DNA of 13,232 nt from a virus. The stretch lies in UHGV virus genome UHGV-0297100; one strand, 5' to 3'. The first letter of the stretch is position 1. The number at the start of each line of letters is the position of its first letter. A program made the position numbers and the translations under genes. The notes beneath the pieces are model-generated. The model was not told the origin of the DNA and made no database searches. It worked only from the letters and a program-made list of their open reading frames with translations. Shown one piece after another: positions 245-13,231 of this stretch.

Positions 245-430
245 ATGTCATCAAAGAACAGAACCCGCAGAACAACAACCCGCAACATCCGATTTCCAAA
301 CCAGATGATTGAACAAATTAACATCGCTCTTGATCTGAAAGGTTCAGGAAACTTTTCAGCGTGGGTTATTGAAGCCTGCAGAAGAAGGCTGTCAACAGAG
401 AGTTCGGGTATGAATTACATAATTAAGTAA
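245..430 (+). CDS. Small basic protein with a ribbon-helix-helix-like fold (putative DNA-binding protein)
   Basis: 61 aa ORF with GGGGAAA upstream of the ATG. Arg/Thr-rich N-terminus followed by RNIRFPNQMIEQINIALDLKGSGNFSAWVIEACRRRL, which fits a beta-strand/helix/turn/helix RHH pattern. Fold assignment is by eye. Confidence 0.4.
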   Translation: MSSKNRTRRTTTRNIRFPNQMIEQINIALDLKGSGNFSAWVIEACRRRLSTESSGMNYIIK

Positions 431-2687: not shown

Positions 2688-3200
2688 TTAAACGGTATGA
2701 TATTTCATTCTGGCGGCCTCAAAAGCCGCAGCGGCAAGTTCGGCAGTATCATGGTATCCAAGGTTAATACACTTTCCAGACGCATTAATTCTTGCTCTCC
2801 ATTTCCCGTACTTAGCATCCCAAGACACGCCACGGTATCCAGATTTATTATTCTTCTGAATTTTCCTGTTCTGCATATTTTCGGAATGAGTGACAAGACG
2901 AAGATTTGATATCCGGTTATCTGTTCTTACCCTGTTGATGTGATCAATAAAACCATCGGGCATGGTGCCATAAACAATCAACCATGCCAGTCTGTGAGCA
3001 GGGTATGCTTTACCATTAATCATAATCATTAAATACCCATCAGAATTTATTGATGAGCATTTCTTGAAAGCAAAACGAGAGTTCCATGTCAAAGTGGTCC
3101 TCTCTCTTCCCCGCCTCCATCTCCAGTGAAAGTCGCCTGATGATGGATTGTAATCAACAACAGAAAGCACCATTTCTGGCGTTAATTTTATTTCTTTCAT
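2688..3200 (-). CDS. HNH endonuclease with a C-terminal AP2-type DNA-binding domain (homing-endonuclease-like moron)
   Basis: HNH motif region HRLAWLIVYGTMPDGFIDHINRVRTDNRISNLRLVTHSENMQN, followed by an AP2-like segment SGYRGVSWDAKYGKWRARINASGKCINLGYHDTAELAAAAFEAA. RBS AAGG upstream of ATGAAAGAAATA. Appears AT-richer than its neighbours by eye. Confidence 0.8.
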   Translation of the reverse strand: MKEIKLTPEMVLSVVDYNPSSGDFHWRWRRGRERTTLTWNSRFAFKKCSSINSDGYLMIMINGKAYPAHRLAWLIVYGTMPDGFIDHINRVRTDNRISNLRLVTHSENMQNRKIQKNNKSGYRGVSWDAKYGKWRARINASGKCINLGYHDTAELAAAAFEAARMKYHTV

Positions 3201-3320
3201 CGCTTTACCTTAGGGATAGAGCCTGTTCGCGTAGATATGACAGCCAAGAGCGGAGCGATGTTTCCACCACCATATCTCAGGCCCATATCACTAAGACTCT
3301 TGTTTTGATTGCACGCGAAT

Positions 3321-3347
3321 GCAAAAAAGCCCACAGGAGGTGGGCTT
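3321..3347 (-). terminator. Rho-independent terminator, candidate tR' downstream of the late promoter
   Basis: Minus strand reads GCCCAC-CTCCT-GTGGGC (6 bp GC-rich stem) followed by TTTTTTGC. It lies about 50-70 nt downstream of the candidate pR' and upstream of the HNH gene. Confidence 0.6.
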
Positions 3348-3387
3348 GTGATGGTTGCTGAATGCAAAAGCAGCAGCATATGTGAAT

Positions 3388-3417
3388 ATTATGGCTAAAT
3401 GGCTAATTGCATGTCAA
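3388..3417 (-). promoter_or_regulatory. Candidate late promoter pR' overlapping the 3' end of Q
   Basis: Minus strand TTGACA (3417..3412), an 18-nt spacer, then CATAAT (3393..3388). The Q stop codon TAG (3397..3395) lies inside the spacer. The position just downstream of Q matches lambdoid pR'/qut architecture. Confidence 0.5.
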
Positions 3418-3913
3418 GGCTTTTAACAGCAACATGCTTAACTTTCTCAACACGTTTACGCATTTTGAAAGCATTTTGCATTGGTTGGTACAAAACAAAT
3501 AACGACGCTTTCAGGATGTCGTCAATTTCGTTTCTACAGGTTGCCAGTGAAGGTTTTCTCCATCCCTCGCCACCACGTCCACACATCTTGCGTGGCTTTG
3601 CAGTCGCGTGATAGTAGGATGCAATTGCTCGCTTAGATGAACCATGAGCGTAGTAGCTGAGGAGGATGCCAAAGGCTTTCTTGTCAATGTACATGACGGA
3701 ATCGACGACCTGAGAAATCAACATTCCATCATCATCATTACACATTGGCCTTGTCATAACTCTTCCCGGCTCTACGCTCTCCATGAACTTCGCTATTACG
3801 CTGCTCATGCGCTTTTCCAGACGACCTGAATAAACCCATGCGCCCCACAGCTCAAGCCAGCCATTCAGCCAATCGTGCTGTTCTTTGGTGAGGTTTAGCT
3901 CTCTTATGCTCAT
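3395..3913 (-). CDS. Q: Late-gene antiterminator Q (Phage_antitermQ family)
   Basis: Motifs WLELWGAWVYSG...TRPMCNDDDGMLISQVV match the conserved ERWGAW...SRP.C.DDD pattern of QuuD-type Q proteins. It directly follows ninH, and its start overlaps the ninH stop (ATGA). Confidence 0.8.
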   Translation of the reverse strand: MSIRELNLTKEQHDWLNGWLELWGAWVYSGRLEKRMSSVIAKFMESVEPGRVMTRPMCNDDDGMLISQVVDSVMYIDKKAFGILLSYYAHGSSKRAIASYYHATAKPRKMCGRGGEGWRKPSLATCRNEIDDILKASLFVLYQPMQNAFKMRKRVEKVKHVAVKSLDMQLAI

Positions 3914-4098
3914 CGTCTTCCCTTTTTTCCTGGCGTGACCATCAGGACGCCGTTAACTATTACATGACGCTCGCCTTTGCTGTCTCGGTTGTACTTGAGC
4001 ACTGTTCCTCTTGCGCAGGAAAGCATCCTTGCCACTTCGGTCTGATTGCCTCGTGTCTGGATAAGAAGCTCTGGTATCGTTTGAATTGTGGCGTTCAT
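3910..4098 (-). CDS. ninH: NinH-like small DNA-binding protein
   Basis: 62 aa with IPELLIQTRGNQTEVARMLSCARGTVLKYNRDSKGERHVIVNGVLMV, resembling lambda NinH (IPDMLVEAYGNQTEVARRLKCSRGTVRKY...). Overlaps the rusA stop. Confidence 0.8.
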   Translation of the reverse strand: MNATIQTIPELLIQTRGNQTEVARMLSCARGTVLKYNRDSKGERHVIVNGVLMVTPGKKGRR

Positions 4099-4457
4099 AC
4101 GTTCTCCAGTTCGGTGATTTTTATTCCAAGCCGTCCGCCTGGTACTTTCACACCACGAATTACGCGAATGTCATCGAATTGCTCGTCGTCTTCCGCAAAT
4201 CCGGCGTGGATAAGAGAGTCGAGTAAACCTTTCAGGATGTTATCGAGGTCGCGGCGGCGGGAGTCTGGAACGTCTGCGATGACTTTGATGCGGAGCCGTG
4301 ATTTGGTGAAAATATCTAACTTGAGTTGGTGGATGATTTGCTGAACGTCTTTTCGGTATTTCTGGCCTTTATCGCTGATGTAGTATTGGCTTCCCCGTCT
4401 TCGCCAGTAGGTATTCACCGACGGCGGGTATGGAAGCACAAACTGATATTCGTTCAT
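4095..4457 (-). CDS. rusA: RusA-family Holliday junction resolvase
   Basis: 120 aa with MNEYQFVLPYPPSVNTYWRRRG...DVPDSRRRDLDNILKGLLDSL...RLGIKITE, matching RusA signature regions (PDRRRRDLDN). It sits where lambda has ninG. Confidence 0.9.
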   Translation of the reverse strand: MNEYQFVLPYPPSVNTYWRRRGSQYYISDKGQKYRKDVQQIIHQLKLDIFTKSRLRIKVIADVPDSRRRDLDNILKGLLDSLIHAGFAEDDEQFDDIRVIRGVKVPGGRLGIKITELENV

Positions 4458-6913: not shown

Positions 6914-7204
6914 TCATTGCCTTACCTCCATAAGCGCCCTATTAATAAACGCCGTCATTGGATTTGCACATCCCCACCCCGTACCATCTGGATTTCTTTT
7001 AATTGGCTCCTTCTTCACTTTGCGTTTTGCATAAATAACCGTCTTCCACTTACGCTCAACAACACTCAAATGTCCTTGTTTCACCATATGCCTTGCTGCT
7101 TGAGCGATTCTGTTATTTGGTATTCCGGTGATCAGTGCTAATTCATGTGGGGAGAATTGTTCATGAGTTTTCAGATATTCCAGGATGATTTCTTTTCCAG
7201 TCAC
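6914..7204 (-). CDS. ren: Ren-like protein (winged-helix)
   Basis: 96 aa starting MTGKEIILEYLKTHEQFSPHELALITGIPNNRIAQAA..., resembling lambda Ren (MTGKEAIIHYLGTHNSF...) in sequence, length and position after the replication genes. Confidence 0.7.
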   Translation of the reverse strand: MTGKEIILEYLKTHEQFSPHELALITGIPNNRIAQAARHMVKQGHLSVVERKWKTVIYAKRKVKKEPIKRNPDGTGWGCANPMTAFINRALMEVRQ

Positions 7205-8046
7205 GATCTGCTCCTGTAACTATCCCATGTAAACGCAAGAGTGCACCCGCCGCCATCATTCATCCTGTCAATAACACGCTCACCAATGAATGCAGATAGT
7301 TCATCTTTGCTCTGGTTGCTAATCAGGATTGTTGGCTTCATGCACTCGTAGCGGGTGTTGATGATTTCGAACATGATCATCTTTTCCGCCTCGCTTCCAA
7401 ACTGTACACCAACCTCATCGATAATTAGCAGGTCAGGTTTAGTGAACTGTCGGATCACTTCATCCTCTGTGCGGGTGGAGTTTTTCGACCATGTTGATTT
7501 ATATTCTCTGGCAATTTTCAGCGCCGTTGTGAAAATAGCTGAGCTTTGATGTTCCGTAATTGCGTGCCGGGCGATAGCCAGTGCAAGATGATTCTTTCCA
7601 GTACCAGGCTTTCCACACATAACCAGCCCACCGCCTTTCTGTAACCTCTCAGGCCATTTGCTGGCGTATGCCTGACACACCCTGAGCACTCTCTTTGCAT
7701 CGTCGTTGACTGGCTCGTAGTTCTGTAGTGTGCAACCCTTGAATCGTTCAGGAATATCAAGATTATTCAACAGAAACTCGACATTGCGCTTACGTGATTC
7801 CTCGTCGATTTTAATCTTCTCTGCCTGTAGCCGAATAAGCTTATCTCTCATGCATTCCGGGCATTCGCTAGGTCTTGAGGCAAACTTAATTGGCCCAGTC
7901 GAGTAACGGTTACGCTGCTCAAACTCACCATGTTTTTCACAGATGCCAGTGCCAATTTCTACAGATGTATGCTCGATAGCAATTGGCGGAGAACTCAATT
8001 CTGCAAGTTTTTTCTCCAGTTGGGAGATCTTTTCATCAAGCGTCAT
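7201..8046 (-). CDS. DnaC-like helicase loader (AAA+ ATPase, IstB/DnaC family), replication protein in the P position
   Basis: Walker A GKPGTGKNHLA and Walker B LLIIDEVG. Start taken at MTLDEK..., with GGAG upstream, just after the O stop. Confidence 0.9.
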   Translation of the reverse strand: MTLDEKISQLEKKLAELSSPPIAIEHTSVEIGTGICEKHGEFEQRNRYSTGPIKFASRPSECPECMRDKLIRLQAEKIKIDEESRKRNVEFLLNNLDIPERFKGCTLQNYEPVNDDAKRVLRVCQAYASKWPERLQKGGGLVMCGKPGTGKNHLALAIARHAITEHQSSAIFTTALKIAREYKSTWSKNSTRTEDEVIRQFTKPDLLIIDEVGVQFGSEAEKMIMFEIINTRYECMKPTILISNQSKDELSAFIGERVIDRMNDGGGCTLAFTWDSYRSRS

Positions 8047-8048
8047 GT

Positions 8049-8891
8049 TCACTCCTGCGCCCATGAAGGCATTTCAGTTTGTCCGTAATCTTTGGTGGCA
8101 AAGTTTTCCTGCATAGCTCGATGCTGCGGCCTCGGTTGAGATTTCCCCTTTGGAGTCTTGGGCTCAAAAATCCCCTGCCAACCACTGGCGATGCTCTGGT
8201 TTATAATTTCTTCAGGTGTATATCCCTTCTCCAGACTTCTGCTTAGAACGTTGATAGCCTGAGTGACACTTTGCTTAGACTTGATCGACTTACCTATCTC
8301 CTTGCGATAGGTAACCCACGACAACCATGTTTCTGCTGATAACCAATCAGGCAACTCTGTTTCTAGCGGGTCGAACTTCTGAGAAACTTTTTTGGGGGAT
8401 ATAGGGGGTTTATTAATATTTTCTTTTGTCTTTAAAGAATGTCTTTTGTGTGTCTCTAACTTCGAGACATTGAGTGTCTCTAATTTGGAGACATTTTTTG
8501 TCTCTAACTTCGAGACAAAGTTGCTAACTTGGAGACACTTGCTGAATTGCCACGCAGATACCTCACTGTTTACACCGATTTGATTTCCATCCATAAACAG
8601 GCAATTCATTGAAATCAGTTCTTTTTTAGCCTTGTTAACATTCTGCCTTGACAGTCCTGTTAACTGAGCAATTTGCTCATCGGCTATTCGATCTGTTTTC
8701 TTATTGAATCCATATGTTTTCCGGACGTAGGCCAGCATAACTTTCAACTGGCGAGCGGTTAAATCGGCACTTGCGATAGCTTCCAGCAGCTCGTTAGCGA
8801 ATCTGGTGTAACCATCATCGATATCAGCCACTCTTCGCTCCTGTTCAACAGGTTCACTCTTCGGCAGGTAAAATACTTCAGCAAGGCTCAT
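8049..8891 (-). CDS. O: Replication initiator protein O (lambda O-like)
   Basis: Gene upstream of the DnaC-like loader. The coding sequence contains the origin iterons, reflected in the protein repeats VSKLETKNVSKLETLNVSKLET. Start taken at MSLAEVFYLPK..., with GGAGG upstream. Confidence 0.85.
   Translation of the reverse strand: MSLAEVFYLPKSEPVEQERRVADIDDGYTRFANELLEAIASADLTARQLKVMLAYVRKTYGFNKKTDRIADEQIAQLTGLSRQNVNKAKKELISMNCLFMDGNQIGVNSEVSAWQFSKCLQVSNFVSKLETKNVSKLETLNVSKLETHKRHSLKTKENINKPPISPKKVSQKFDPLETELPDWLSAETWLSWVTYRKEIGKSIKSKQSVTQAINVLSRSLEKGYTPEEIINQSIASGWQGIFEPKTPKGKSQPRPQHRAMQENFATKDYGQTEMPSWAQE
8451..8537. repeat. Replication origin iterons inside O
   Basis: Three near-identical 19-bp palindromic units TGTCTCTAA(C/T)TT(C/G)GAGACA at 8451-8469, 8475-8493 and 8499-8517, with 24-bp periodicity, plus a degenerate fourth at about 8522-8537. 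An AT-rich stretch at about 8395-8450 flanks them. Confidence 0.85.
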
Positions 8892-9522
8892 TTCCAACCT
8901 CCGCATCAAAGCATTGGGCTTCAAGAGACTTAACCATCACCACACTGCCATCTGTATTAATAACTATCGATGAGTTATATTTGCTTATCAGTTGCTTCGC
9001 GTAATCAATTCCGGCGCGAATAAGGAAATTTTTCACCGCAGGAAGATGACCAACTACACTACCCAGACCTTGCTCTATAAGCTCCTCATTAAGATCAAGC
9101 TCATTTTCATGGCGAAAAGAAATGAATGAGTCGTAAATTGCGTATTCTGCCGTCTCGCCATTTCTTTCAGGGCCAACCAGCGCCCTTATTTCATTTAGAG
9201 ATTCAGAAAGATCATTATCTTCAAGCTTGAAAAACTCTCGATTATCACTAAGCCTCTCTTTTGCAAAGGCTTTATGAATGAGTTTTTCATCTGATGCGGG
9301 ATTATTTGAATGAAAGGCTGCTATCACCTTAAATGGCTTAGGAACGCCAGTAGAGGCTGAAATTTCTTTAGCCCTAACTTCTGGTGAATGCTTAGTCATC
9401 CCAATCTTATAAATTCCTGGCATGCACTCATTCGAAAGCACATAAACAAAGCCATTTGATTTAAAATCATCTGGCACCTTCATGCTCTTCAGAACCTGGA
9501 ATTTGTCATTTTCGTATGTCAT
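8878..9522 (-). CDS. T5orf172 / GIY-YIG-like domain protein (moron between cII and O)
   Basis: N-terminal motif GFVYVLSNECMPGIYKIGMTKHSPEVRAKEI fits the T5orf172 / GIY-YIG-like pattern. GGGAG lies six nt upstream of the ATG. AT-rich by eye. Domain call is from motif memory. Confidence 0.55.
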   Translation of the reverse strand: MTYENDKFQVLKSMKVPDDFKSNGFVYVLSNECMPGIYKIGMTKHSPEVRAKEISASTGVPKPFKVIAAFHSNNPASDEKLIHKAFAKERLSDNREFFKLEDNDLSESLNEIRALVGPERNGETAEYAIYDSFISFRHENELDLNEELIEQGLGSVVGHLPAVKNFLIRAGIDYAKQLISKYNSSIVINTDGSVVMVKSLEAQCFDAEVGNEPC

Positions 9523-9554
9523 AATTACTCCCGTGGATTGATCCAGTAATTCCC

Positions 9555-9851
9555 TCAGAATTGCATATCAATTTGCTTAAAATCCTCGGTGGCGGCCGGG
9601 GATTTTTTCTTTGTGATTTCATCAAGCGCATACTTAAAAGCCCTGCTAATCGGACTGATGTCTGATGCCATTCCGAAAGCACACAAGACCGAAGCAATAA
9701 ATCTCCAGTCCGTTCTGCTTATCTTCGATTCATGACAGCCAATCATCTTTGCCAGACCGCGCTGGGTAAGCGTTGACAGGTTGATGAGTAAATCTGTTTC
9801 TGCGCGATCAACGTCGCGCTGTGATAGTTTGCTGTAACTTGTTTGTTCCAT
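9555..9851 (-). CDS. cII: CII transcriptional activator
   Basis: 98 aa ending KKKSPAATEDFKQIDMQF, matching the lambda CII C-terminus (KKRPAATERSEQIQMEF). Located between cro/nutR and the replication genes. Confidence 0.85.
   Translation of the reverse strand: MEQTSYSKLSQRDVDRAETDLLINLSTLTQRGLAKMIGCHESKISRTDWRFIASVLCAFGMASDISPISRAFKYALDEITKKKSPAATEDFKQIDMQF
9584..9611 (+). terminator. Rho-independent terminator antisense to the cII 3' region (oop-RNA-like)
   Basis: Plus strand CCTCGG-TGGCGG-CCGGGG (stem with one G-U pair) followed by ATTTTTTCTTT. It is on the strand opposite cII, within the cII 3' coding region, as for lambda oop. Confidence 0.55.
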
Positions 9852-9989: not shown

Positions 9990-10217
9990 TTATGCAGCCA
10001 GAAGGTTCTTTTTGCTTATTTCAAGCATTTCGCTTGCTTGATATTTGCCACCAGAAATCTCTTCGATTTTTGATGCGTATTTCGTTTTCCCAAAAAACTC
10101 AGTCTTAGGGAGGAAGCCGTTTTTGAGCCACTTATAGACAGCCCTTTCGCTAACTCCACAAGCCTTCGCAACTTCAGGGATGCCGACACCTTTAATCGGC
10201 TCATCAAGATTTTGCAT
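9990..10217 (-). CDS. cro: Cro-like repressor (HTH)
   Basis: Start taken at MQNLDEPIK..., with AAGGA upstream. HTH segment IPEVAKACGVSERAVYKWLKNG. Divergent from cI across the operator region. Confidence 0.7.
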   Translation of the reverse strand: MQNLDEPIKGVGIPEVAKACGVSERAVYKWLKNGFLPKTEFFGKTKYASKIEEISGGKYQASEMLEISKKNLLAA

Positions 10218-10232
10218 AGGGATATCCTTTTT

Positions 10233-10303
10233 CGTACTTTCAGTACGCATTATGATTGAACTGAAAGTTTTTGCAAGTGCTTTAGTATCGTACTCATGGT
10301 TCA
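10233..10303. promoter_or_regulatory. OR operator region with divergent PR/PRM promoters
   Basis: Perfect palindrome CGTACTTTCAGTACG (10233-10247), plus related sites TGAACT-GAA-AGTTTT (10257-10271) and CGTACT-CAT-GGTTCA (10289-10303, overlapping the cI ATG). Minus-strand PR candidate TTGCAA (10271-10276), about 16-17 nt spacer, CATAAT/ATAATG. Confidence 0.7.
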
Positions 10304-11003
10304 GAATGAAAAAGTGCGCAAAGAATTCGCCCAGCGGCTAGCGCAAGCCTGTAAAGAAGCTGGTCTTGATGAACATGGTAGGGGAATGGCTATAGCCCGT
10401 GCCCTTTCTCTTTCGTCCAAAGGCGTTAGCAAATGGTTTAATGCTGAGTCTTTACCGCGTCAGGAAAAAATGAATGCGCTTGCGAAATTTCTAAACGTTG
10501 ATGTTGTTTGGCTTCAGCACGGCACTTCGTTAAATGGAGCGAATGATGAAGATACTCTTTCATTTGTTGGCAAATTAAAAAAAGGGTTAGTGCGCGTGGT
10601 TGGTGAGGCAATTCTTGGTGTTGATGGTGCCATCGAGATGACCGAAGAGCGCGATGGGTGGCTCAAGATTTATAGCGATGATCCAGATGCCTTTGGTCTT
10701 CGTGTAAAAGGAGACAGCATGTGGCCTAGAATAAAATCAGGAGAATATGTACTCATTGAGCCTAACACCAAAGTATTCCCGGGTGATGAGGTGTTTGTCA
10801 GAACCGTTGAAGGACACAACATGATCAAAGTTCTTGGCTATGACAGAGACGGAGAATACCAGTTTACAAGCATCAACCAGGACCATAGGCCAATAACGTT
10901 GCCTTATCATCAAGTAGCAAAGGTGGAGTATGTGGCTGGTATTCTGAAGCAATCTCGCCATCTGGATGACATCGAGGCAAGGGAGTGGCTGAAAAGTTCG
11001 TGA
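10296..11003 (+). CDS. cI: CI repressor (N-terminal HTH, C-terminal LexA/S24-like autocleavage domain)
   Basis: 235 aa with an N-terminal HTH region and a C-terminal S24 peptidase-like domain (GDSMWP serine, MIKVL lysine). Divergent from cro. Confidence 0.9.
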   Translation: MVQNEKVRKEFAQRLAQACKEAGLDEHGRGMAIARALSLSSKGVSKWFNAESLPRQEKMNALAKFLNVDVVWLQHGTSLNGANDEDTLSFVGKLKKGLVRVVGEAILGVDGAIEMTEERDGWLKIYSDDPDAFGLRVKGDSMWPRIKSGEYVLIEPNTKVFPGDEVFVRTVEGHNMIKVLGYDRDGEYQFTSINQDHRPITLPYHQVAKVEYVAGILKQSRHLDDIEAREWLKSS

Positions 11004-11080: not shown

Positions 11081-11518
11081 GTGGAACAGGAAAAGATTTC
11101 TTTTGTCTATCCGACGCTAATGCGTGAAGGCATGTTCGCAGGTGGTATTTATGTACCTGACCTGTCAATGGTCATTGATAGAAAAGAGCAAAAAACACCA
11201 ATCGCCGTTACGGCTGGATTCTTGATGAAATCAGTCGAAATGTACGTTATTGAAGTCGAAATAAATGCGATGGATGCCCCATCTCCAACTGAGCATAGCC
11301 TTTCTGGTCACATTCAAACAAAGTACATTGAGAGAATAAAATACGGCGGAAAGTTAGCTGTCTATACCATGCTTTCCGAGAATGCTGACCTAAACAATGA
11401 TGGTTTTTACAGGGTTGTTGTAAGGTTCTATAAGACGTCTAATGGAGAGAAAGTCGGCAATTGCTTAGATGAAAAAGATTGTTTTTTCTATGTTTCGCAT
11501 AAGGACTCAGGGGAATGA
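11081..11518 (+). CDS. Hypothetical soluble protein, first gene of a two-gene module downstream of cI
   Basis: 145 aa ORF starting at GTG with AAGGA six nt upstream. No recognisable domain and no predicted TM segment. Its stop overlaps the next ATG (GAATGAGC). AT-rich by eye. Confidence 0.6.
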   Translation: MEQEKISFVYPTLMREGMFAGGIYVPDLSMVIDRKEQKTPIAVTAGFLMKSVEMYVIEVEINAMDAPSPTEHSLSGHIQTKYIERIKYGGKLAVYTMLSENADLNNDGFYRVVVRFYKTSNGEKVGNCLDEKDCFFYVSHKDSGE

Positions 11519-11817
11519 GCAAATCGCATTTGTATGTTGTTCCTACAAACAATGAACCCTTGGTTGAAAATCACCCACAAGAAGATGATAATCATAAATA
11601 TGGAAATGGCGGTGGGGGTGATGACATGCTTGAAAGGGTCAAAAAGCTAGAAGAACAAATGGCATCACTTGTTACAGATGTTGCTGTAATTAAGTCTAAC
11701 TATGCCACCAAAGAAGATTTGCACAAAGAGATTGGATCGCAGACAAAGTGGATTGCAGCAACCATAATCGGCACGACCGGTTTAGCTTTGGCTGTCGCTA
11801 AGTATCTTTTTGCCTGA
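11515..11817 (+). CDS. Hypothetical small membrane protein (coiled coil plus C-terminal transmembrane helix), second gene of the module
   Basis: 100 aa with an acidic Gly-rich N-terminus (GNGGGGDD), a coiled-coil-like LERVKKLEEQMASLVTDVAVIK, and a C-terminal hydrophobic helix WIAATIIGTTGLALAVAKYLFA. Translationally coupled to the upstream gene. Confidence 0.6.
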   Translation: MSKSHLYVVPTNNEPLVENHPQEDDNHKYGNGGGGDDMLERVKKLEEQMASLVTDVAVIKSNYATKEDLHKEIGSQTKWIAATIIGTTGLALAVAKYLFA

Positions 11818-12322: not shown

Positions 12323-12706
12323 ATGACACGCAGAACTCAGTTCAAAGGCAATTCACGTTCTCGTCGTCGTGAGCGTTTAAAGGCAAAGGCATTAGCTAAC
12401 GGCGTGCTGGCCCGCGAAGAAGCAATAAGTTCAGAAGTATTACACCGCCCTACTCTAAGCAGAGCGCAGATTCAGGCTAAAGGTACTCACGAAACGCCTG
12501 AGCGCATAGAAGACGCTAAGCCAATTAAGTTCATGGCACAGGACGTGATCTGGCAACAGAAAGAATACAGACGCAATCTGGAGAGAGCGGCCATTGTGTA
12601 CGCGAATGAGTTTGGACATAAGCAACCAGAAACTGGTGTATGTCTTCCAAACGTAGCCATTTACGCGGCAGGCTACAGGAAATCAAAACAACTGACGGCG
12701 AGATGA
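12323..12706 (+). CDS. N: N-like antitermination protein (P22 gp24 / phage-21 N type)
   Basis: Arginine-rich N-terminal motif GNSRSRRRERLKAKA and C-terminus AIYAAGYRKSKQLTAR, resembling P22 gp24 (ALYAAGHRKSKQITAR). Strong RBS (GGAGG) and an upstream nutL boxB. Confidence 0.75.
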   Translation: MTRRTQFKGNSRSRRRERLKAKALANGVLAREEAISSEVLHRPTLSRAQIQAKGTHETPERIEDAKPIKFMAQDVIWQQKEYRRNLERAAIVYANEFGHKQPETGVCLPNVAIYAAGYRKSKQLTAR

Positions 12707-12721
12707 TAAATCATTTGCTAA

Positions 12722-13231
12722 TTACTTGTTTTTGCCATGCTTATCCTGAGCGATAAGTTCATCCATAAGACTGTCTTTCTTCCCAGCAAACCTAATGTAG
12801 CACTCATTTCTATAGCGTTCCGGGATAACAAAACGGTCGATTTCAGGATATCCAGTAGCAGAAGGTATCCGAATAAGAAGCCCTTTTTCGAGCAATGAGA
12901 TTGCTTCAGGGCTTCCCTTTTCTGTCTTTAGCTGGTTATTCGCGGCTACAGCGAATGCCAAATACGCTCTTTCTCCAAGAGTTAACGAATCAAACAAATC
13001 TTGCACATATTTTTCTTCTTTAGATTTGCGCTTCTGAGCAGCGGATACCTCAATTCTTTCAGTCACAGCGTGATAAGCGGAATTAACAACACCGTTAAGC
13101 ACATAGCTAACGCAGAACAACAGGATGTAATACATCCAATAATGAGGAAGGATTTCTGGATTATGCAGGTTTATCCATTCTTTTACGCTTACCGGCATAA
13201 CAATAATCAATATGATCAGGATGATTAGCAT
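12722..13231 (-). CDS. Membrane protein convergent with N, possibly SieB-like superinfection exclusion protein (may extend beyond the window)
   Basis: 169 aa ORF reaching the window edge. Two N-terminal hydrophobic segments (LIILIILIIVMPV, YWMYYILLFCVSYVLNGVV) followed by a soluble domain. Opposite strand to N, as for lambda/P22 sieB. The family assignment is tentative. Confidence 0.35.
   Translation of the reverse strand: MLIILIILIIVMPVSVKEWINLHNPEILPHYWMYYILLFCVSYVLNGVVNSAYHAVTERIEVSAAQKRKSKEEKYVQDLFDSLTLGERAYLAFAVAANNQLKTEKGSPEAISLLEKGLLIRIPSATGYPEIDRFVIPERYRNECYIRFAGKKDSLMDELIAQDKHGKNK

Follow-up and report, generated by a model that had tools for sequence, protein, structure and literature searches.

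A T5orf172-family nuclease gene at the start of the replication initiator gene in lambdoid phages

Within 13,232 nucleotides of the virus genome UHGV-0297100 (the whole stretch of DNA analysed here, hereafter the window, to which coordinates refer unless another genome is named), an open reading frame (ORF) on the minus strand at 8878-9522 lies between the lambdoid genes cII and O. Its sequence predicts an active T5orf172-type GIY-YIG nuclease that is intact and selected, encoded by an optional gene whose homologs always abut a replication initiator gene. We tentatively favour, as possible though somewhat short of probable, a role in which this early, initiator-coupled nuclease cuts the DNA of rival lambdoid phages and so favours the O-ori module to which it is linked.

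The first-pass annotation of this DNA had placed a 214-aa ORF between cII and O, had quoted from its N-terminus a motif beginning GFVYVLSN, and had assigned it to the T5orf172/GIY-YIG family, and all three points were confirmed. The ORF runs from an ATG start to a TGA stop, its neighbours match Phage_CII and Phage_rep_O in Pfam, and the motif GFVYVLSN...GIYKIGMTKHSPEVRAKEI is found at aa 24-54. In a hidden Markov model search, aa 24-112 matched both T5orf172 (PF10544, E=2.3e-15, 57.4 bits against a cutoff of 20) and MUG113 (PF13455, E=4.3e-16, 59.7 bits against a cutoff of 22.3), in each case above the Pfam gathering score, and the identical protein in RefSeq is named 'GIY-YIG nuclease family protein'. 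The gene and its two domains are as follows.

8878..9522, minus strand: T5orf172-family gene, 214 aa (ORF call, Pfam, RefSeq WP_021823884.1, AlphaFold pLDDT 86.9)
9187..9453, minus strand: nuclease domain, aa 24-112, T5orf172/GIY-YIG fold, with Y27, Y38, R50, H83 and E96 invariant
8881..9186, minus strand: orphan acidic C-terminal domain, aa 113-214, alpha/beta, net charge -8

The AlphaFold model, for which the input was a 37-sequence alignment, is confident, and its N-terminal half has the GIY-YIG fold, the best fold matches being to SLX1; a Foldseek search against BFVD returned T5orf172/Bro proteins, with the alignment restricted to a core of about 95 residues. The annotation had proposed to verify the catalytic residues, and these are intact: Y27, Y38, R50, H83 and E96 are unchanged in all 37 homologs (33-83% identity to the window protein). 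The catalytic Tyr/Tyr/Arg/Glu were assigned by motif and spacing only, since no PDB sequence match was found for the full-family profile and hence no residue-level mapping onto a solved GIY-YIG structure could be made. Their separations of 11, 12 and 46 residues are similar to the canonical GIY-YIG spacing of I-TevI. Both halves of the protein are under strong purifying selection (dN/dS 0.09-0.11 in each, with dS of about 1). The profile match is significant and the gene is optional, not universal, in lambdoid phages, so that neither of the two findings that the annotation had named as fatal to its claim turned up.

Full-length homologs, at 35-100% identity, were found in Escherichia, Klebsiella, Pectobacterium, Pantoea, Enterobacter, Mixta and Dryocola as well as in about 70 IMG/VR contigs, and each of them has cII (or YdaT) on one side and a replication initiator on the other, the latter followed by a lambda-P-like or DnaC-like loader. 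In 78 of 78 unique loci, the distance between the initiator start and the stop codon of the homolog is within -29 to +12 nt, and this fixed position spans O-type, MARSRNIKPGFF-type and gp18-like modules. The second of these initiator families, which starts with MARSRNIKPGFF, has no Pfam match and is listed in PHROGs as 'replication initiation protein'. One of its members (L072; 340 aa, from 6661), 3' of a T5orf172 homolog, contains an embedded HNH domain (PF01844, E=6.5e-11, aa 137-176). In Salmonella phage S107 (L244, MH370364), positions 2856-4319 carry cII, orf63 (48 aa), orf64, 'primosomal protein I' and a primase/helicase in that order; orf64 is a T5orf172 homolog with 44% identity over aa 5-127. 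A cultured Salmonella phage thus has this gene order as well, with a replication module of a third type. The genes next to the T5orf172 gene in the window are the following.

9555..9851, minus strand: cII, the upstream neighbour (Phage_CII, E=5e-32), showing no co-variation with the cassette (rho -0.02)
8049..8891, minus strand: replication initiator O (Phage_rep_O, E=4e-36), with its true ATG at 8891 (RefSeq CDS boundaries)
8446..8540, strand not applicable: ori iterons within O, three copies of 24 nt and a fourth partial copy (repeat search)
7201..8064, minus strand: DnaC-like helicase loader (Pfam and PHROG)

Only 32 nt separate the cII stop from the T5orf172 start codon, and at the other end the T5orf172 gene overlaps the start of O by 14 nt, with the ribosome-binding site (RBS) of O, GGAGG at 8898-8902, inside the T5orf172 3' end. 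This organization predicts that the T5orf172 gene is translationally coupled to O.

The boundaries of the gene could be set by comparison with relatives lacking it, as the annotation had suggested. The insert-free reference was phage mEpX1, in which cII is about 99% the same, the O body is the same and the T5orf172 gene is absent. Identity with the window extends up to ATGACA, which is the start of O in mEpX1 and the start of the T5orf172 gene in the window (9522-9517), and restarts at GAACAGGAGCG (window 8846). The cassette is therefore 670 nt long (8847-9516), against 42 nt in the empty allele.

8847..9516, minus strand: 670-nt cassette, with 42 nt in its place in the mEpX1-type empty allele (alignment; break at 8846/8847 in 28 insert-free genomes)

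The cassette takes over the conserved RBS and start codon of O and brings O the new GGAGG. With it the N-terminus of O reads MSLAEVFYLPKSEPV, versus MTNTAKILNFGRGNFA in mEpX1. Among 5,426 complete E. coli genomes we found 47 with this O 5' region, and the cassette was present in 19 and absent from 28 of them, a presence/absence polymorphism of the kind displayed by free-standing homing endonuclease genes (HEGs). Homology ended at 8846/8847 in every one of the 28 cassette-free genomes; thus the variant O codons 1-15 (8847-8891) occur only together with the T5orf172 gene. Past the junction, the O bodies of carriers and non-carriers are 99-100% identical. The cII genes next to near-identical cassettes (98-100% protein identity) represent at least three alleles, and the loaders two. 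The only cultured carrier of the cassette that we found is CurroJimenez_Bas106 (L002, PQ850599), a P22-like podovirus of the BASEL collection. One sequence (P0032) was considered as an O/T5orf172 fusion or decayed copy and set aside as a probable artefact, its metagenome contig (L016) having many broken genes. The annotation's description of a gene inserted between cII and O thus holds with respect to mEpX1-type phages, but not as a one-off event, the gene being a recurrent, position-fixed first cistron that diverges together with the initiator.

The gene is AT-rich relative to its neighbours, as had been noted: its GC content is 0.403 (0.353 at third codon positions, GC3), compared with 0.451 (GC3 0.485) for cII, 0.435 (0.459) for O and 0.468 (0.493) for the loader, and it is among the lowest 5% of 645-nt windows. 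The window contains three promoter-like sites, against 2.7 in shuffles, and none lies upstream of the gene. Because a promoter above chance is absent there, the early expression that the annotation had placed in the right operon is a reasonable inference, with transcription from pR. The suggestion of a moron in the classical sense does not stand, since neither a promoter nor a terminator of its own was found and the gene starts so shortly after cII.

In the reading that we favour, the T5orf172 gene, which is optional, leads the lambdoid replication module as its first cistron, and its product would be an active endonuclease. Transcription would start early at pR, along with cII, O and the loader, and translation would use the conserved RBS and ATG that otherwise serve the initiator, while the RBS and start of O inside the 3' end would couple the two proteins. 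During lytic growth or induction, the nuclease would cut related lambdoid replicons without the cassette, for instance those of a resident prophage or of another phage infecting the same cell. The break would be made within or close to the empty cII-O junction, which contains the 42 nt that the cassette genome lacks. Recombinational repair off the cassette genome would then favour inheritance of the nuclease gene and of the tightly linked O-ori module, a form of homing or marker exclusion in which the replication module is the cargo. Here we infer the nuclease activity, its target, the discrimination of self from non-self and the gene conversion. We count in favour of this scheme the T5orf172/MUG113 matches, the fold, the invariant residues and the low dN/dS, together with the AT-richness and the polymorphism of the cassette at one exact site. 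The 42 nt of the empty allele, absent from cassette genomes, would provide a possible target, and this difference is consistent with cleavage of the empty allele and resistance of the phage's own allele. The several cII and loader alleles that adjoin the gene point to a mosaic boundary, and we also count in favour that the variant O codons occur exclusively with the gene.

The site itself receives more than one kind of gene. The 25 nt preceding the T5orf172 ATG (ACTGGATCAATYCACAGGAGTAATT) form an element that is kept in nearly all T5orf172 subfamilies, whatever the initiator, and that also precedes the O ATG in empty sites.

9523..9547, minus strand: conserved 25-nt landing element ACTGGATCAATCCACGGGAGTAATT, supplying the RBS of the gene that leads the slot and, read from the opposite strand, corresponding to the oop 5' region

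The GGGAG that the annotation had taken for the gene's own RBS belongs to this element, which precedes the initiator ATG in insert-free phages. With the element as a probe, we recovered at least 120 IMG/VR contigs (L124-L243); some ORF fills the slot in about 70% of the 120 lambdoid contigs sampled. The ORFs at the conserved ATG in this sample are listed below.

The initiator itself: about 36 of 120
A 53-aa basic ORF (PHROG 1331): 34 of 120
A DUF2740-like ORF of 47-49 aa (Pfam match on a 48-aa member): 30 of 120
A ParB-like ORF (PHROG 1033; HTH_ParB): 10 of 120
T5orf172: 6 of 120
Others: a few of 120

Given these alternative ORFs, the cII-O junction is a general cargo slot, of which T5orf172 is one alternative occupant. 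The statement of the annotation that lambda has no gene between cII and O may apply to lambda-type phages, but it does not extend to most of the contigs sampled. Further occupants of the slot are a 191-aa PHROG 874 protein and a 135-aa ORF without assignment. In L218, a fragment of a Dam methyltransferase is joined to O codons 1-19 at the ..AEQER junction, which in the window is the right boundary of the cassette. Where two cargo genes are present (L141 and S107), T5orf172 is the one that adjoins the replication gene.

Occupation of the slot has a consequence on the opposite strand, where the oop antisense RNA is encoded.

9520..9606, plus strand: oop antisense RNA unit, with the po -10 CATAAT (9520-9525), a two-hairpin body and a terminator at 9579-9606 (fold z=-3.8)

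The -10 is the complement of the T5orf172 ATG region and is retained, as are the body and terminator, which are intact in the window, while T5orf172 coding sequence stands in place of the -35 (TGGAAT, 9497-9502). At the empty site of mEpX1 (L001, 3170-3198) a promoter TTGAGT-17-CATAAT with a TG extension was called, and the same promoter scan called no oop promoter in the window. Any cargo in the slot parts the oop -10 from its -35. It could be asked whether the cassette matters mainly through regulation, the loss of the oop -35 and the shifted translation of O altering the cII/oop balance and the lysis-lysogeny decision, or else whether the protein is no more than a DNA-binding factor. The carrier Bas106 is reported to form clear plaques despite intact-looking lysogeny genes and to show no temperate behaviour, in a study where three other Lederbergvirus isolates formed turbid plaques (bioRxiv 10.1101/2024.09.12.612763). 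However, this is a single case with many confounders, other cargo displaces the -35 equally, and cassette prophages in 19 genomes indicate that lysogeny is possible; invariant catalytic residues and a dN/dS of about 0.1 over the whole protein also fit poorly with such a role, which we consider very improbable.

The C-terminal half of the protein (aa 113-214) had no match in Pfam, among PDB sequences or by fold. A search with its profile through 1.84 billion representatives gave only 14 matches, which were full-length family members, short fragments and one spurious match, a 1368-aa eukaryotic laminin; all four of the full-length members scanned with Pfam carried T5orf172. The protein is acidic in 37 of 37 family members (pI 4.5-5.4, net charge of the C-half -2 to -11), and no Zn-finger or Cys-rich motif was seen in any of the 37. 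Target recognition may occur through the nuclease domain itself or through a partner.

The second possibility leads to a different reading, which we think somewhat unlikely and which is the chief alternative to the favoured one. In it, the acidic C-domain would bind the co-translated initiator or another replisome protein, which would target the DNA, and the nuclease would act at origins or replication intermediates, whether its own forks and flaps or origins bound by rival initiators, as a domesticated component of the module. The fixed distance to the initiator start over several module types, the retention of T5orf172 beside the initiator even behind another cargo ORF, the acidity of the C-half with no DNA-binding domain found, and the strong selection on both halves are all in its favour. 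In pairwise comparisons, the identity of the C-half was correlated with that of the initiator (Spearman 0.58), more so than that of the N-half (0.32), whereas no correlation was seen with that of the upstream gene cII, which is just as close (-0.02), and a weak one with that of the loader (0.16), these values being descriptive as the pairs are not independent. The best fold matches of the nuclease domain are to SLX1, and SLX1 requires the partner SLX4. The cassette also diverges in step with the O body, the respective identities being 99.4/99.4, 98.4/98.1, 82/87 and 71/87%. An HK97-type HNH nuclease offers an analogy, raised in PMC10448857: it is likewise HEG-like, fixed before an essential gene (terminase) and cooperates with its product, but the window gene belongs to another nuclease family and another module, and its cooperation with the initiator is putative. 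Against a partnership of this kind, the gene is dispensable, being missing from 28 of the 47 genomes with the same O and from most lambdoids, and co-variation may merely reflect that there is no recombination site between overlapping genes. One broad type of C-domain occurs with two unrelated initiator families; the clustering that gave it (30% identity) is too coarse to inform. A more specific version, which we regard as unlikely, has the C-domain docking on the initiator or O-some, so that origin recognition by the initiator would direct the GIY-YIG cut, either destroying the origins of rival lambdoids or satellites to which cross-reacting initiators have bound, or nicking the replicating DNA of the phage itself, perhaps to bring about the switch from theta to rolling-circle replication.

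Because cassette and O body diverge in parallel, and because the diverged relatives L004 and L050 have an MSLAEV-type O N-terminus too, the linkage of cassette and O is old in this O lineage. The mEpX1-type empty allele consists of 16 lambda-type codons joined to this O body and is probably a derived recombinant.

Several of these observations weigh against cleavage of rival DNA followed by biased inheritance. The native O N-terminus of this lineage travels with the gene, so that the empty allele may be a product of recombinant loss and not a target. Since other phages have unrelated cargo in the same slot, the polymorphism could have arisen by ordinary recombination at the conserved element. 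The cassette gives no indication of having spread on its own: it diverges in parallel with the O body and is no more conserved than its flanks, and the O body comparison revealed no co-conversion gradient past the junction. No convincing decayed copy was seen, the sole fragmented copy being the one on contig L016. In addition, Pfam, fold and Zn-finger motif searches and the charge of the protein give no indication of the DNA-binding or target-recognition domain expected of a homing endonuclease, and the acidity is, to our knowledge, atypical for sequence-specific endonucleases. The free-standing GIY-YIG homing endonucleases of T4 (I-TevI, Seg proteins) carry basic helix-turn-helix or Zn-finger DNA-binding domains, whereas none was detected in the window protein. 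About 87% of the described T5orf172 HEGs have Zn-finger DNA-binding domains (PMC10448857).

In favour of the cutting of rival DNA, phage T5orf172 genes have been proposed to be homing endonucleases that adjoin essential genes, are situated where genetic exchange has its boundaries and take linked genes along as cargo (PMC10448857). Those of ICP1, T5-like and other lytic phages (Barth, Dunham & Seed 2023, PMC10448857) share with the window gene the nuclease domain, the free-standing form, an adjoining essential gene, the location at a boundary of genetic exchange and the possible carriage of linked essential genes. In contrast, the window protein has no CapR, DUF723 or DUF4397 Zn-finger but an acidic, orphan C-domain, and its gene resides in temperate lambdoids, is fixed at the initiator start codon and co-diverges with its neighbour. 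The words 'lambda', 'lambdoid' and 'temperate' each have 0 occurrences in PMC10448857.

The precedents also include nucleases of conflict, and the product could serve exclusion or defence without homing by degrading the DNA of superinfecting phages, satellites (PICI) or plasmids, thus protecting the producing phage or lysogen. Odn (ICP1 Gp88) uses a borrowed RepA_N domain to direct its T5orf172 nuclease to the origin of a satellite, and the nuclease domain is needed for function (PMC8263062). The window protein shares with it the nuclease and the tie to replication-origin conflict, but Odn has an origin-binding domain taken from its target, whereas no such initiator-derived domain is fused to T5orf172 here: a chimera of this kind was considered and rejected, hhalign giving a probability of 0.1% for the C-half against O-type and MARSRNIKPGFF-type initiators. 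SNIPE/PD-lambda-1, which requires its GIY-YIG catalytic Glu for function (PMC13190303), has a related GIY-YIG/T5orf172 nuclease domain (PADLOC 8.5e-12). However, it is a host defence protein of about 490 aa with a transmembrane (TM) anchor and DUF4041 ahead of a C-terminal nuclease, and the soluble-looking window protein of 214 aa has neither; only profile positions 354-450 of 491-496 match, DUF4041 is absent by Pfam and 23 aa precede the nuclease domain. The best PADLOC match is the candidate system PDC-S57, whose proteins are of similar total length (about 212-245 aa) with an N-terminal T5orf172, although the match (E=6.4e-29) covers only profile positions 3-93 of 212 and the C-half is different. 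The PHROG 8130 profile matches the N-terminus of MARSRNIKPGFF-type initiators at positions 11-102 (from L011, 4694-5554) and T5orf172 at 181-257 (from this protein), and suggests that Odn-like fusions of an initiator DNA-binding domain with T5orf172 may exist in other phages, and with them origin-directed nucleases in this phage group. A second profile, PHROG 8430, matches the 214-aa protein at positions 275-439, its 274 N-terminal positions being unexplained. Despite these precedents and the PADLOC matches, we judge a purely defensive role quite unlikely, given that the matches are confined to the nuclease domain with no TM segment, DUF4041 or initiator-like DNA-binding domain, that the gene sits in the repressed pR operon with no promoter above chance for expression in the lysogen, and that PDC-S57 is only a candidate, on which we found no literature.

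The surrounding genes fit a lambdoid immunity and replication region that is read on the minus strand, the loader being followed by nin-region genes, Q and the lysis genes. The remaining features of the immunity region are these.

12722-13231, minus strand: SieB
12323-12706, plus strand: N
10296-11003, plus strand: cI-like repressor
9990-10250: Cro-like gene

The cI-like repressor is immediately followed, in the slot of rexAB in lambda, by an ORF of 145 aa (11081-11518, plus strand) and an overlapping one of 100 aa (11515-11817, plus strand); neither has a Pfam or PADLOC match, and both could be expressed in the lysogen. A 170-aa ORF (2688-3200, minus strand), located between the lysis genes and the Q antiterminator (3395-3913), combines HNH_3 (E=2e-18) with AP2 (E=1.6e-8), the typical architecture of a free-standing HNH homing endonuclease; in E. 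coli 1916D6 its slot is occupied by a TnpB/InsQ gene. The left end of the window contains an ALIL pseudoknot (Rfam RF01497, 39-138, plus strand; 75.9 bits against a gathering score of 50) and, after it, a DUF3950 ORF (245-430, plus strand), which together could be an IS3-type frameshift element.

The domain family is already known and the protein is annotated as a GIY-YIG nuclease. In the literature searched, we found no description of a lambdoid T5orf172 subfamily with an orphan acidic C-domain, of the strict placement of T5orf172 at the initiator start codon over several module types, or of a multi-cargo cII-O slot with a conserved landing element, and titles and abstracts on GIY-YIG or homing endonucleases in lambdoid phages contained nothing on this gene. 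In lytic phages, T5orf172 nucleases are emerging as a force behind gene exchange and origin-directed conflict, and the gene described here represents a distinct subfamily in temperate lambdoid phages of Enterobacterales, locked to the initiator start codon. Should the C-domain dock on the initiator, the initiator gene and the nuclease would form a two-part unit across several unrelated initiator families, and a nuclease working through the initiator would add a new accessory activity to a replication system that is among the best studied. If instead the nuclease cuts rival genomes, it would provide a mechanism for biased inheritance of the O-ori module and for mosaicism at the classic cII/O boundary, a question that the cultured carrier Bas106 makes experimentally tractable.

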